Below are positions 8,255 through 62,774 of a stretch of 64,000 bases of DNA, one piece after another. Where the stretch lies: NCBI GenBank assembly GCA_016721765.1, contig JADKHO010000004.1:800409-864408 (forward strand), given 5' to 3'. The translations under genes and the position numbers were made by a program. The notes below the pieces were generated by a model, which did not search any database, was not told where the DNA came from, and saw only the letters and a list, made by a program, of their open reading frames with translations. This stretch comes from Bacteroidota bacterium. GTDB lineage: Bacteria > Bacteroidota > Bacteroidia > UBA4408. Each line of letters begins with the position of its first letter. The first letter of the stretch is position 1.

Positions 8255-8668
8255 ATGACAATCCTCATCCACTCACTTACCGGTATTAATGCTTCAGCAG
8301 CGCAGTTTCTAAATGCTATTGGCGATAAAAAGGTAATTGCTTTTAGTGGTGAGATGGGTGCCGGAAAAACTACATTTATTAAAGCGGTGTGTAAAGCCTT
8401 GGGCGTTTTGGATGTGGCTTCCAGCCCTACTTTTTCTTTGGTGAATGAATACCTCAACCCTGCCGGCGAGCGCATTTATCATTTCGATTTTTATCGCATC
8501 AACAAAGAGAGCGAAGCACTAGACATGGGCTGTGAGGAATATTTTTATAGTGGCAACTATTGCTTTATCGAATGGCCGGAGAAAATAGCTTCTTTACTTC
8601 CGGATGCAACTTTGCACGTTGAGATAAAGATTAAGGGCGATTCACGTGAAATCCATTTTATTGCCTGA
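8255..8668 (+). CDS. tsaE: tRNA threonylcarbamoyladenosine biosynthesis protein TsaE
   Basis: 137 aa. Walker A GEMGAGKTTF and the SPTFSLVNEY motif are characteristic of TsaE/YjeE. Confidence 0.85.
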   Translation: MTILIHSLTGINASAAQFLNAIGDKKVIAFSGEMGAGKTTFIKAVCKALGVLDVASSPTFSLVNEYLNPAGERIYHFDFYRINKESEALDMGCEEYFYSGNYCFIEWPEKIASLLPDATLHVEIKIKGDSREIHFIA

Positions 8669-8770
8669 TGAAGATTATGTGCAACTTGGCAAATTAAGAG
8701 GGAACGCACCAATCTAGCATCACATTTCGTGTGATACTTTTTGTTAATTATCTTTACTTAAATCTTATAG

Positions 8771-9175
8771 CCCAATCCTACATGAAACCTATTTTCCTAT
8801 GATTCTATGTGTTTCAAAAAAAATATTCTTATAAAATAAAACACATAGGCACATAGGCCAATCCTATATGAAACCTATTTTACCTATGATCCAATGTGTT
8901 TCAAAAAAAACTTCCTTAAAAAAAAACACATAGGCACATAGGCCAATCCTATATGAAACCTATGCTTCCTATGATCCTATGTGTTTCAAAAAAATATTCA
9001 CATAAAATAAAACACATAGGCACATAGGCCAATCCTACATGAAACCTATGTTAACTATGATCCTATGTGTTTCAAAAAAAACTTCCTTAAAAAAAACACA
9101 AAGGCACATAGACCAATCCTATATGAAACCAATGTTTACTATGATCCTATGTGTTGCAAAAAAATATCCTCTTCA
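8771..9175. repeat. Intergenic tandem repeat, about 5 units of about 86 bp, each a near-palindromic hairpin built from CACATAGG/CCTATGTG octamers
   Basis: Units start near 8771, 8857, 8943, 9029 and 9112. Each has a left arm aaacacataggcacatagg, a loop ccaatcctatatgaaacctatt.., and a right arm cctatgatcctatgtgtttc, separated by A-runs (caaaaaaaa). Confidence 0.85.
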
Positions 9176-9260
9176 AAAAACAGTTTGATATACTTACATT
9201 ATGAGCACCCATTAATTCAATCGAAAAAAATATTGCTTTCCCTTCATTTTAATTTTAAAT

Positions 9261-10505
9261 TTGTGTAACGATTCCTATAAAATTATGATAACATCAAAAG
9301 ATGTGTTATTGAGCCTTCAAAAGCAAGGTGGATTGATGCCTCAGGAGGAAATGCTGGAAGTAGGGCGAAAGAAAGGTCAGCTCTTTATTGGAATTCCCAA
9401 AGAAATTTCGTTTCAGGAAAACCGCATTGCACTTGTGCCGGATGCGGTGGCTTTATTGGTAAATAATGGGCACCATATCGTGATTGAAACGAATGCCGGT
9501 AAAGCAGCTCATTTTGAAGATAAAGATTACAGCGAAGCTGGAGCGCAAATTGTGAGCAGTCCGGAAGAAGTATATAAAGCCGATATCATTTTAAAAGTAG
9601 CTCCTCCCTCTCCTGCCGAAATTGAAATGATGCAGCGCAAGCAAACCTTGATTTCGGCTTTACAATTTGCAGTGCAGCCCGCTAATTATGTGAAGCAACT
9701 GATAGATAAAAAAGTAACCGCCATAGCCTACGACTACATCAAAGACCGCGATGGAATTTATCCTATTATTCGCGCCATGAGCGAAATTGCCGGTAACACC
9801 TCCATTTTGATTGCAGCCGAATATTTGAGCAATTTAAGTATAGGACAAGGTTCTATGTTTGGAGGAATAACAGGCGTATCCCCTACCGATGTAGTGATTT
9901 TAGGAGCAGGAACCGTTGGAGAATTTGCCACCCGAGCTGCGCTTGGATTGGGTGCATCCGTTAAAATTTTCGACAACTCAGTATATCGCTTGCGACGTTT
10001 ACAAAGCGATTTGGGTATGCGTGTGTTTACTTCTTTACTTCAACCCAAAGTAGTAAGCAAAGCACTAAAAACCGCCGATGTTGTAATTGGTGCCATTCGA
10101 GCCCCGCACGGACGGACTCCTTGTGTAGTGAGCGAAGAGATGGTAATGGAGATGAAATACGGAGCTGTCCTTATCGACATCAGTATAGACCAAGGAGGAG
10201 TTTTTGAAACATCCGAGATAACCAATCATACACATCCTGTATTCCGCAAACATGGAGTAATTCATTACTGTGTTCCCAATATTGCATCCCGCGTTTCGCG
10301 CACTGCATCGTATGCCTTGAGCAATATATTTGCACCTATTTTATTGAATATTGGCGAAGAAGGCGGTATTGATAACATGCTTCGAAGAGATAGCGGTGTG
10401 CGTCATGGTGTATACGTGTATAGCGGAATTCTTACCAATCGCTTTTTGGGCGAAACCTATCACTTGCCATATAAAGATATTGATTTATTGATGGCCGTGA
10501 TTTAA
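9261..10505 (+). CDS. ald: Alanine dehydrogenase / PntA-family NAD(H)-binding enzyme (most likely alanine dehydrogenase)
   Basis: An AlaDH/PNT N-terminal domain (IGIPKEISFQENRIALVP) and a Rossmann motif VVILGAGTVGEFA. The ORF probably starts later than the track's 9261 (Met at about 9336 or 9351), because Ald proteins begin at the IGIPKE segment. Confidence 0.7.
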   Translation: MCNDSYKIMITSKDVLLSLQKQGGLMPQEEMLEVGRKKGQLFIGIPKEISFQENRIALVPDAVALLVNNGHHIVIETNAGKAAHFEDKDYSEAGAQIVSSPEEVYKADIILKVAPPSPAEIEMMQRKQTLISALQFAVQPANYVKQLIDKKVTAIAYDYIKDRDGIYPIIRAMSEIAGNTSILIAAEYLSNLSIGQGSMFGGITGVSPTDVVILGAGTVGEFATRAALGLGASVKIFDNSVYRLRRLQSDLGMRVFTSLLQPKVVSKALKTADVVIGAIRAPHGRTPCVVSEEMVMEMKYGAVLIDISIDQGGVFETSEITNHTHPVFRKHGVIHYCVPNIASRVSRTASYALSNIFAPILLNIGEEGGIDNMLRRDSGVRHGVYVYSGILTNRFLGETYHLPYKDIDLLMAVI

Positions 10506-10581: not shown

Positions 10582-10983
10582 ATGACCACTTCCCGACGAA
10601 TAAGACTCTTTATAATTGGTGTGCTATTGGGTAGCATCATCATGTATTTTTTTGTTTTTAAAAATCGCAATGTATACAAATCACCAAGCGAAGTTATTCA
10701 TGGAAAGTTGCAAAGTCAGCATCTTGAATACAGCAAGCATGCACAATGTCGCATGAAATGCCGCAACATCAGCGAAAGCGAAGTGAAAGAAATTTTAATG
10801 AAAGGCGAGGTGAATTACACTAAAAGCCAAGTACATGATAAACCTTGCCCCTCTTATGCCTTAGAAGGCAAAACTTCGGACGGTCAGAATGTTCGAATTG
10901 TTTTTGCTGAATGTGATAGCGTTACCAAAGTTATTACTGCAATTGATTTGGGATTGGAGAATGATTCCTGCGCCTGCGAATAA
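10582..10983 (+). CDS. Membrane-anchored small protein with a DUF4258-like (RelE/colicin-E5-like toxin fold) C-terminal domain
   Basis: 133 aa with an N-terminal TM helix (LFIIGVLLGSIIMYFFVF). The distal part (HAQCRMKCRNISESEVKEIL..GKTSDGQNVRIVFA) resembles the DUF4258 consensus H..R...R.IS..EV. Assigned from memory, not by search. Confidence 0.4.
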   Translation: MTTSRRIRLFIIGVLLGSIIMYFFVFKNRNVYKSPSEVIHGKLQSQHLEYSKHAQCRMKCRNISESEVKEILMKGEVNYTKSQVHDKPCPSYALEGKTSDGQNVRIVFAECDSVTKVITAIDLGLENDSCACE

Positions 10984-12321: not shown

Positions 12322-13056
12322 CTAATGTTGCGCTAATTTGTATTTTTTGATCAGTTTTAAGGTATGCTTCATTGAATTTGTGCCTTTCCAACTGTTGTGC
12401 CCCGGAATAATAAATTTAGGTTTTCCAAATTTAGTTTGGATGTTCTTTATTGTAACTGACCATTCATCCACACTGGCATCACCAAGATAACCTAAGTCTC
12501 TTGCCTCTGTACTTTTAATGAGGCAACCGCCATAAAGTATTTTCTCCTTTTCAAACCAAATTACAATATTGTCGGGCGCATGCCCCTTGCCGGGATAATA
12601 GGTTTGAAAAGTATTTTGTCCAACTTTAAATAAAGTATCTTTTTCAATCAAAAATTCGGCTCGCTTTTGATTGTTTAATTTTGAGATTTTATCAGTTTGA
12701 ACGCTTGTGTAGGTTTTTATTCCTTGTTTCTTAAAATAGTCGAGCCCGCCTGTTCTATCTTCATGCGAATGCGTGGCAATGCACAAAAGAATATCTTTCC
12801 CATGCGTTTTCTTGATATAATTAATGAGCGGTTGAAATTGAGTAGTATCCCAAGGCGTATCAAACACAACAGCGCCCTGTTCGGTTAAGAGATACATGCC
12901 ATTAGCCGGAACCTGATATTCCTTATATGCATTGTAAGTGGTGTACACATAAAAATTGCCGGTGAGTGGAGTTACCTGCAATTTATCTGCATTCGATTGC
13001 CCAAAAACGCAGTTCGAAATAAAACAAAAAACAAGTTGTAAGCGTAACAAAAGCAT
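12322..13056 (-). CDS. Subclass B1 metallo-beta-lactamase (BcII/BlaB/IND-like)
   Basis: 244 aa with a signal peptide. It has H-S-H-E-D (HxHxD; Zn1 His116/His118, Asp120) and YYPGKGHAPDNIVIW (His196). Cys221 appears as GGCLIKS and His263 as PGHN. The protein is collinear with the Bacillus cereus BcII sequence recalled from memory. Confidence 0.85.
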   Translation of the reverse strand: MLLLRLQLVFCFISNCVFGQSNADKLQVTPLTGNFYVYTTYNAYKEYQVPANGMYLLTEQGAVVFDTPWDTTQFQPLINYIKKTHGKDILLCIATHSHEDRTGGLDYFKKQGIKTYTSVQTDKISKLNNQKRAEFLIEKDTLFKVGQNTFQTYYPGKGHAPDNIVIWFEKEKILYGGCLIKSTEARDLGYLGDASVDEWSVTIKNIQTKFGKPKFIIPGHNSWKGTNSMKHTLKLIKKYKLAQH

Positions 13057-62262: not shown

Positions 62263-62297
62263 GCCAATTTTGCGAAAACGAATAAGTACGCTGCATA

Positions 62298-62774
62298 TTC
62301 GCTCAAATCTTGCGAGTATAAGCTATTCCCAAGCCTCCGACTACTTCAAATTCGCTCGCATCTTGTGAGTGTAAGCTATACCAAAGCCTCCGGCTACTTC
62401 AAATTCGCTCAAATCTTGCGAGTGTAAGCTATACCAAAGCCTCCGGCAACTTCAAATTCGCTCGCATCTTGCGAGTGTACGCTATACCCTTGCCTCCGGC
62501 AACTTCAAATTCGCTCGCATCTTGCGAGTGTAAGCTATAACCAAGCCTCCGGCAACTTCAAATTCGCTCGTATCTTGCGAGTGTAAGCTATACCCAAGCC
62601 TCCGGCAACTTCAAATTCGCTCGTATCTTGCGAGTGTAAGCTATACCCAAGCCTCCGGCAACTTCAAATTCGCTCGCATCTTGCGAGTGTAAGCTATTCC
62701 CAAGCCTCCGGCTACTTCAAATTCGCTCGCATCTTCCGAGTGTAAGCTATTCCCAAGCCTCCGGCTTAATACTT
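62298..62774. repeat. Intergenic tandem repeat, 9 units of 53 bp
   Basis: Unit ttcgctcgcatcttgcgagtgtaagctatacccaagcctccggcaacttcaaa starts at 62298 and recurs every 53 bp, with point variants. Each unit contains a small hairpin ctcgca-tct-tgcgag. Confidence 0.9.

Follow-up and report, generated by a model that had tools for sequence, protein, structure and literature searches.

What is the array of near-palindromes that occupies the spacer between tsaE and ald in this window (the whole 64-kb stretch of DNA that was analyzed): a set of protein-binding sites that serves the locus, a structured RNA, or a repeat with a history of its own? A first-pass annotation had described near-palindromes that are repeated in tandem and composed of CACATAGG / CCTATGTG octamers, and both parts of that description are confirmed, with five units in register at a period of 86 in the tsaE-ald spacer. 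We read the array as a variable-number tandem amplification of one ORF-less palindromic repeat element, arising by founder insertion, local duplication, and neutral decay and served by a nuclease in trans, and we assign this reading a probability of about 0.72. On this reading it is a selfish-repeat array, not a local regulatory or replication site.

The locus and the array comprise the following features (coordinates of the window):

8255..8668, plus strand: tsaE, upstream of the array (TIGR00150, 121.7 bits against a cutoff of 60.1)
8767..9167, no strand: whole tandem array of five ~86-bp units, each a hairpin element plus an A-rich linker
8771..8814, no strand: element 1, loop segment plus right arm 8796-8814; left arm decayed
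8815..8838 and 8987-9009, no strand: A-rich linker variant 1, CAAAAAAAATATTCTTATAAAAT
8839..8901, no strand: element 2, left arm 8839-8857, 25-nt loop, right arm 8883-8901; DNA fold -10 kcal/mol
8902-8923 and 9073-9093, no strand: A-rich linker variant 2, recognized from repeat families and the 171-bp super-period
8924..8986, no strand: element 3, left arm 8924-8942, right arm 8968-8986; best-preserved copy
9010..9072, no strand: element 4, left arm 9010-9028, right arm 9054-9072
9094..9156, no strand: element 5, left arm 9094-9112 (AAACACAAAGGCACATAGA), right arm 9138-9156; DNA fold -8.9 kcal/mol
9233..9263, plus strand: probable ald promoter of the Bacteroidota type, TTG 9233-9235, 20-nt spacer, TAAATTTG 9256-9263
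9285..10505, plus strand: ald (alanine dehydrogenase), downstream of the array (TIGR00518, E 9e-99)

The neighbors along the locus are nifS-like, mqnE, tsaE, ald, DUF4258, DUF6268, and metallo-beta-lactamase genes, and no rep, par, or regulator gene was found adjoining the array among these annotated neighbors. A possible tsaE terminator lies at about 8719-8743, where inspection of the sequence finds a weak hairpin with a T-run behind it; the terminator scan did not call it. The longest ald ORF begins with TTG at 9261; since every homolog has 406 amino acids, the start is probably the ATG at 9285. The source is an uncultured bacterium of the Bacteroidota. The exact Ald protein is present on 17 contigs, and its closest named homologs come from Bacteroidota/Bacteroidia MAGs. 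Bacteroidota promoters have the consensus TTG / TAnnTTTG. The columns of the probable ald promoter are invariant in the alignment, array-less relatives included; the promoter lies downstream of the array, which ends ~70 bp before it. A scan for sigma-70-type promoters found seven against 5.3 expected, which is not above chance.

Tandem Repeats Finder reports a single tandem array (4.7 copies, 87% matches) with a super-period of 171 bp (91% matches). The five units in register are spaced 84-87 bp apart. Each is organized around inverted arms, AAACACATAGGCACATAGG / CCTATGATCCTATGTGTTT, that are 17-19 nt long, 88-89% complementary, and separated by 23-27 nt; the arms in the window are tandem octamers, CACATAGG twice and CCTATGNN three times, and the foot of the stem is AAACAC or ACCAC. 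Unit 1 has no recognizable left arm, and element 5 is the most decayed among the full copies. Throughout the 64-kb window, the arm sequence matches eight times at up to three mismatches (0.03 expected) and the loop segment occurs in five copies (0 expected); all of these fall within the array, and the hairpin element has no second copy elsewhere in the window. The octamer itself is less frequent than the "about 20" occurrences first counted: The array holds nine exact copies (six forward, three reverse; 1.1 expected per 64 kb) and 17 when one mismatch is allowed. The segments between the arms, on both sides, are themselves repeated and hence are not unique sequence, which agrees with the annotation's statement that this is not a CRISPR array.

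Folding of single units, which the annotation had recommended, gives stable hairpins. The arms alternate in orientation along the array, so that either neighbor can serve as a pairing partner, and the two resulting registers, one with a loop that begins with CCAATCCTATATGAAACCTATG and the other with the A-rich linker as its loop, are equally stable. In both registers the units fold as RNA at about -20 kcal/mol on the plus strand and as DNA at -12 to -13 kcal/mol; the minus strand gives -25 to -27 kcal/mol as RNA, the DNA folds across the units range from -9 to -13 kcal/mol, and the z-scores of the units range from -3.6 to -6.4. Element 3 folds at -12.4 kcal/mol as DNA and -20 kcal/mol as RNA, with a z-score of about -5.5.

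Several other observations concern the window at large. Ald is unusually conserved, with 98% amino-acid identity at 79% nucleotide identity. The DUF4258 gene 3′ of ald (window 10582-10983; L011-L020) is a case of start-site or indel polymorphism: Part of the lineages have it called with 133 amino acids, and the rest, where the spacer is longer, with 113. The metallo-beta-lactamase at 12322-13056 (minus strand) is a subclass B1 enzyme of the kind seen in Flavobacteria; its score on the bla-B1-FLAV model is 353 bits, and on the BlaB/IND/MUS model it reaches 310 bits, above the 270-bit cutoff of that model. A 51-bp unit is repeated in tandem at 2505-2760 (3.7 copies, 93% matches, plus one copy past a short gap) and contains ATGTCCTCCTGAGCGGAGTCGAAGG, a motif that we take to be widely recurrent in Bacteroidota intergenic DNA. 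At 62297-62765, a 53-bp unit is repeated 8.8 times (93% matches), each unit with the hairpin CTCGCA-TCT-TGCGAG; this array is unrelated in sequence to the 86-bp array. Runs of the octamer TGATTAGC, in direct orientation, lie at 933-996 (seven copies) and 2440-2480 (two to three copies) and bracket an ORF at 1049-2434 that, from its translation, appears to encode an MgtE-type magnesium transporter.

The same array is found in at least nine independent assemblies and is therefore not an assembly artifact. Contigs from many samples encode exactly identical Ald while their DNA is only 87%-91% identical to that of the window, and the tsaE-ald spacers of these contigs measure 353-354, 442, or 616 bp. 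The comparison of array length between strains that the annotation had proposed thus yields two, three, or five units in different lineages, where the counts of two and three may be underestimates because short-read assemblies can collapse tandem repeats. One near-identical strain (L001) has five units with a few substitutions. Three contigs terminate at the array edge, which is what one expects where a repeat interrupts the assembly of short reads.

In distant relatives (L002-L010) the spacer is 60-152 bp long and lacks the array, and the ald promoter is conserved. Relatives whose spacers measure 152 and 60 bp have Ald proteins 98% and 95% identical and ald DNA 79% and 76% identical to those of the window, and no trace of the repeat was found in these spacers. 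TsaE is 59% identical to that of L002, and the disparity with Ald at 98% raised the suspicion that ald and the DUF4258 gene had been transferred horizontally, with the array at the junction. We reject this, because the ald DNA is only 79% identical and the Ald protein is simply very conserved.

The units themselves carry a record of their duplication. In all lineages the right arms have AT where the family consensus has TG, and this shared mismatch must therefore have been present already in a single founder copy. Later substitutions are uncompensated in the opposite arm: Unit 2 has CCAATG, units 4-5 have ACTATG, and unit 5 also has CACAAAGG, ATAGA, and GTGTTG. Linker variant 1 resembles the right flank of the array (9157-9180, CAAAAAAATATCCTCTTCAAAAAAC), so the duplicated unit consists of the element together with host flank. 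Taken together, the data point to one inserted element that was duplicated in tandem at the locus and whose copies then decayed neutrally, a pattern that does not fit a conserved functional array. The array at this locus would serve as a strain marker, being a variable-number repeat, and not as a regulatory element of ald.

The annotation had named a dispersed MITE- or REP-like element as the finding that would make this a known class of repeat and not a local array, and the arm motif is indeed dispersed across many Bacteroidota genomes. A degenerate pattern compatible with the left and the right arm, CTATGWKCCTATGTGTTTYWWWW, was searched for in GTDB genomes, one for each species; its 39 bits of information correspond to about two chance matches in 596 Gb. 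At least 120 stretches matched, often on many contigs per genome, and all the matches listed are from Bacteroidota. They span many families: Saprospiraceae, Flavobacteriales, Chitinophagaceae, Sphingobacteriales/Pedobacter, Bacteroidales, Prolixibacteraceae, Cyclobacteriaceae, and Cytophagales, a range which, since it is drawn from the matches listed, is a lower bound and possibly skewed by database order. A typical element reads TTTTTGAAACACATAGG-CACATAGG-ACACATAG, a loop of 8-120 nt, and CTATGTGT-CCTATGTG-CCTATGTGTTTCAAAAA, with three tandem octamers per arm; it extends over ~40-135 bp between the outermost octamers, and the arms, 19 nt in the window, reach ~32 nt elsewhere. Among 101 octamer clusters in the matched loci, most have the arrangement >>><<<, and 65 of the 74 that could be scored are intergenic. 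The element family is thus scattered through the intergenic DNA of many Bacteroidota. A role as terminator was considered and rejected: The orientation of the flanking genes is at background, and on the plus strand the hairpins of the window are followed by A-runs.

About a dozen copies in one Saprospiraceae MAG share common loops and a further outer palindrome, which indicates that the element has probably proliferated within that genome. In the Saprospiraceae MAG GFS_3826 (L033-L100), the CACATAGG palindrome forms the core of a ~190-bp palindromic element with outer arms AGTAACGAGTAAATAATAAATAGGTC, present on at least 12 contigs. The two arms co-vary at one variable position, which is complementary in 33 of 36 pairs against 25.8 expected, in what is a small sample. 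Tandem arrays recur as well, with a period of 85 in L067 (4.5 copies, 96% matches) and of 59 in L091 (3.6 copies). At about 7540-7660 of L108, a CACATAGG palindrome is nested in the loop of an ACGGATT-type hairpin, and at 1111-1326 of L026, a fragment of the 23S_rRNA_IVP family (PF05635) lies within inverted AATGAAG-heptamer arms. These two loci suggest that hairpin loops are insertion sites and that several small-gene families share the oligomer-armed hairpin layout. Many of the Bacteroidota loci that were retrieved also have runs of short oligomers (GAATGAA, TTAAGAG, CGTAATT, GGTAGAC, and ACGGATT) on the flanks of genes and of hairpin elements.

The arm pattern matched no viral contigs, and no close relative of the window was found among the fetched genome loci. 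Rfam 15 gave only spurious hairpins, both for the whole window at the gathering threshold and for the region at E <= 10; the best relaxed match, to a miRNA hairpin, is spurious and scores 28.6 bits where 74 would be needed. Searches of the literature available without subscription, using the arm sequences, their high-GC variants, and any link of GxxExxY to flanking repeats, turned up no description of the element. The reading proposed here would explain a class of Bacteroidota intergenic repeats that annotation pipelines ignore and that, as the three contigs ending at the array illustrate, break short-read assemblies.

All-against-all comparison of the ORFs neighboring the elements brought out one recurrent small protein that is bracketed by the arms, in L021, L032, L086, and L103. 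With ~135 amino acids, it is a GxxExxY protein (TIGR04256 / PF13366 PDDEXK_3). None of the other recurrent neighbors is a transposase; they are the ordinary genes for aldehyde dehydrogenase, ABC-F, an OmpA-like protein, and DnaX. When metagenomes were scanned with the aligned GxxExxY proteins of these four loci, 80 loci were obtained, in which nearly every GxxExxY gene, by eye, sits between inverted tandem-oligomer arms. Counted on the same loci, 31 of 48 GxxExxY ORFs have an inverted match of at least 14/16 between their 160-nt flanks, against two of 106 control ORFs. Conversely, 28 of the 39 ORFs with inverted flanks of at least 15/16 across all fetched loci are GxxExxY. The full form of the element is therefore one in which the same arms enclose a GxxExxY gene in the hairpin loop.

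The arm oligomers vary. Low-GC contigs have CACATAG(G), CACAATAG, CATATAAG, or ACATAGA; high-GC contigs have CACGGAG, CGCAGAG, or CACAGAG; and in L038 the arms around the GxxExxY gene are made of CACAGAGG instead. The oligomer partly follows the subclade of the GxxExxY protein, the CACAATAG group, for example, clustering together. We define a hairpin cassette here by inverted arms with at least two tandem 7-9-nt CRCNNAG-like oligomers each and by a GxxExxY ORF in the loop; such arms are found in the window and in the cassettes alike. Empty and gene-carrying units can alternate in one array: The metagenome locus L156 has a tandem array (period 103, 3.3 copies, 94% matches) of empty hairpin units, after which an in-register unit holds a GxxExxY ORF, with 17 nt from arm to ATG and a stop codon that abuts the right arm, followed by another empty unit. 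A similar array adjoins a GxxExxY gene in cultured Rapidithrix thailandica (L221). The window has no GxxExxY gene anywhere in its 64 kb, and its 25-nt loops are ORF-less; its array is the all-empty version of the L156 architecture.

GxxExxY proteins form a family of at least 8000 clusters at 90% identity (E 1e-10), and the function of GxxExxY / PF13366 has been listed as unknown (PMC3424549). The nearest solved folds to the AlphaFold model (pLDDT 95.1, pTM 0.87) are those of Cas4 (SSO0001) and of RecB/RecE/lambda-exonuclease/AdnAB-type nuclease domains, all of them weak matches (E about 1e-3, TM about 0.5), and a sequence search of the PDB found no homolog. Four residues are invariant: E31, which belongs to the GxxExxY motif itself, D71, and E81-x-K83. 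Together they constitute the PD-(D/E)XK catalytic signature. The model and these residues place the protein in the PD-(D/E)XK nuclease fold as a predicted assignment, with putative activity. The hairpin arms would offer a concrete, testable substrate for this very large family.

We can now set out how the array would have come about. A founder copy that already had the AT-for-TG mismatch in its right arm would have landed in the tsaE-ald spacer of the lineage ancestor. The element and its adjacent A-rich flank would then have been duplicated locally, by slipped-strand events or unequal recombination between repeats, to give the two, three, or five units of the different lineages, and these copies would now be decaying neutrally. 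That the octamers are protein recognition sites, as the first-pass annotation had it, is plausible from their arrangement, and we propose that the tandem octamers are recognized by the cassette's own, probably oligomeric, nuclease, which for an empty array would have to act in trans, encoded at some other place in the genome. The element may have spread by a homing- or transposition-like process, to judge only from its multi-copy distribution; no empty-versus-filled site was found at high identity. Any effect on the expression of tsaE or ald would be incidental. If this explanation is true, the genome should contain more copies at unrelated sites and a GxxExxY gene with AAACACATAGG arms.

A broader proposal is put forward more tentatively, at somewhat less than even odds. 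GxxExxY genes with tandem-oligomer arms might constitute a previously undescribed class of selfish cassettes, found in several phyla, as a PD-(D/E)XK counterpart of REPtrons or homing elements. In such a class the nuclease would recognize its own arms, and the oligomer would diversify along with it (for low-GC Bacteroidota CACATAGG, CACAATAG, and CATATAAG; for high-GC contigs CACGGAG, CGCAGAG, and CACAGAG), with ORF-less hairpins and arrays, that of the window among them, as non-autonomous derivatives.

How do the other readings fare against the selfish-repeat array? The first-pass interpretation is partly supported overall; the functional roles that it proposed are not supported. If the array were a local operator or iteron array, octamer pairs would bind a dimeric regulator, for example one that controls ald, or a replication or partition protein. 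There is some material for such a reading, since 400 bp contain 17 octamer-like sites, facing either way, and only about 70 bp separate the end of the array from the ald promoter downstream, but we consider it very improbable. Relatives with the same conserved ald promoter do without the array, its copy number ranges from 2 to 5, substitutions in its arms look neutral, and other Bacteroidota carry these arms at >100 unrelated intergenic sites. Iterons are direct repeats of ~17-22 bp that all point one way and lie beside a rep gene and an AT-rich unwinding element. The alternating orientation of the arms and the lack of a rep or par gene among the neighbors count against iterons in particular, and the lack of an adjacent regulator gene against operators. 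A structured RNA repeat, in which transcribed hairpins would act as RNase III sites, mRNA stabilizers, antisense terminators, or small RNAs, is unlikely in our judgment. The hairpins are certainly stable (-20 kcal/mol on the plus strand, -25 to -27 kcal/mol on the minus strand, z about -5 to -6), and those of the minus strand are followed by a U-run, giving three terminator-like sites against 0.9 expected. Moreover, because only ~17 nt separate the cassette arm from the start codon, the cassette mRNA must start in or before the arm and probably holds both arms, and the heptamer arms around the IVS-protein fragment (PF05635) of L026 likewise suggest stems of the RNase III type. However, no Rfam family is found at the gathering or relaxed threshold, substitutions in the arms are uncompensated among the units, the elements are symmetric and show no bias of orientation or position relative to genes, and on the plus strand, the direction of both flanking genes, the hairpins precede A-runs and not U-runs.

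A third reading makes the array a repeat of a classical kind: a REP/BIME mobilized by a RAYT (Y1 HUH) or the MITE of a DDE transposon, with GxxExxY genes that merely insert preferentially into hairpins. The element is intergenic, palindromic, and multi-copy; its alternating orientation and two linkers resemble E. coli BIME-2 arrays; and the nesting of hairpins with different oligomers, as in L108, suggests that loops are insertion targets. Bacteroidota RAYTs (subclass 2.6) have, in addition, been reported with atypical REPs that lack GTAG (PMC6006769). Even so, we think this quite unlikely. A six-frame motif search of the 120 matches listed and the window found no RAYT-type ORF near the elements, the inverted repeats around the one Y1_Tnp that turned up, in L046, are unrelated, no REP made of a CACATAGG-type octamer is listed in the supplementary REP tables of PMC6006769, and a GTAG or CGTC foot is absent. 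Moreover, the arms recurrently enclose one gene only, GxxExxY, and the arm oligomer differs from one of its subclades to another. The Y1 transposase of L046 (4606-5052) is IS200-like, with a Y...Q..HH motif (subclass 1.2 of PMC6006769) and a 16-nt inverted repeat of its own; the CACATAGG family is represented by a half-element ~400 bp away.

The selfish-repeat array and its gene-carrying relatives share features with several known systems. Integron cassette arrays likewise consist of small promoter-less cassettes in tandem between imperfect palindromes, and the mixture of empty and ORF-bearing units in L156 recalls them; there, however, attC is a single site after the ORF, whereas here the arms bracket each ORF and are oligomer repeats. 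Free-standing PD-(D/E)XK homing endonucleases such as I-Ssp6803I are also small proteins encoded inside what may be their target, and a palindromic site of the multi-subunit type would be plausible here by analogy, although the similarity is one of fold class only and no intron or intein context is present. The stems of rRNA intervening sequences (IVSs) are excised by RNase III. IVSs of 23S rRNA that contain a small ORF (PF05635, 23S_rRNA_IVP) offer another likeness, in that flanking inverted repeats form a long stem whose loop contains a small gene, multi-copy and selfish in appearance, and the PF05635 fragment of L026 has tandem-heptamer arms of the same style; the sites here are nevertheless intergenic and not in rRNA, and the protein fold is different.

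Further parallels are found among MITEs and long palindromic repeats (ERIC/IRU, Correia, RUP, and Nezha), which are ORF-less intergenic elements of 60-200 bp with terminal inverted repeats, have near-identical copies at unrelated loci of one genome, and have an ORF-bearing relative with the same ends. Here that relative encodes a 135-aa nuclease-fold protein and not a recognized transposase, and tandem arrays of the whole element are common. Inspection of the element edges revealed no target-site duplication; the T-run and A-run flanks belong to the palindrome.

A comparison can also be drawn with the REPs, BIMEs, and REPtrons of E. coli and Pseudomonas, whose RAYT is also called TnpA-REP. REPs are short, imperfect, intergenic palindromes in many copies, as the element is in other Bacteroidota genomes, and BIME clusters share with the array the alternating orientation of units, the two alternating linker types, and the variable copy number. 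In REPtrons, too, a small nuclease-type gene is bracketed by inverted repeat copies. The differences are equally specific. The element has no GT[AG]G or CGTC foot, and its arms are tandem octamers where a REP is a single stem; REPs are usually species-specific, whereas the arms here are nearly identical across many families of a phylum; and the gene of a REPtron is a Y1 HUH transposase, in contrast to a multi-copy PD-(D/E)XK gene (GxxExxY) inside the hairpin loop. By the features that define REPs, then, the element is not one of them: It has neither a GTAG or CGTC foot nor a RAYT. In the way it works, the array would nonetheless be comparable to BIME/REP clusters or to arrays of MITEs, and the layout of a gene within arms resembles that of a REPtron.
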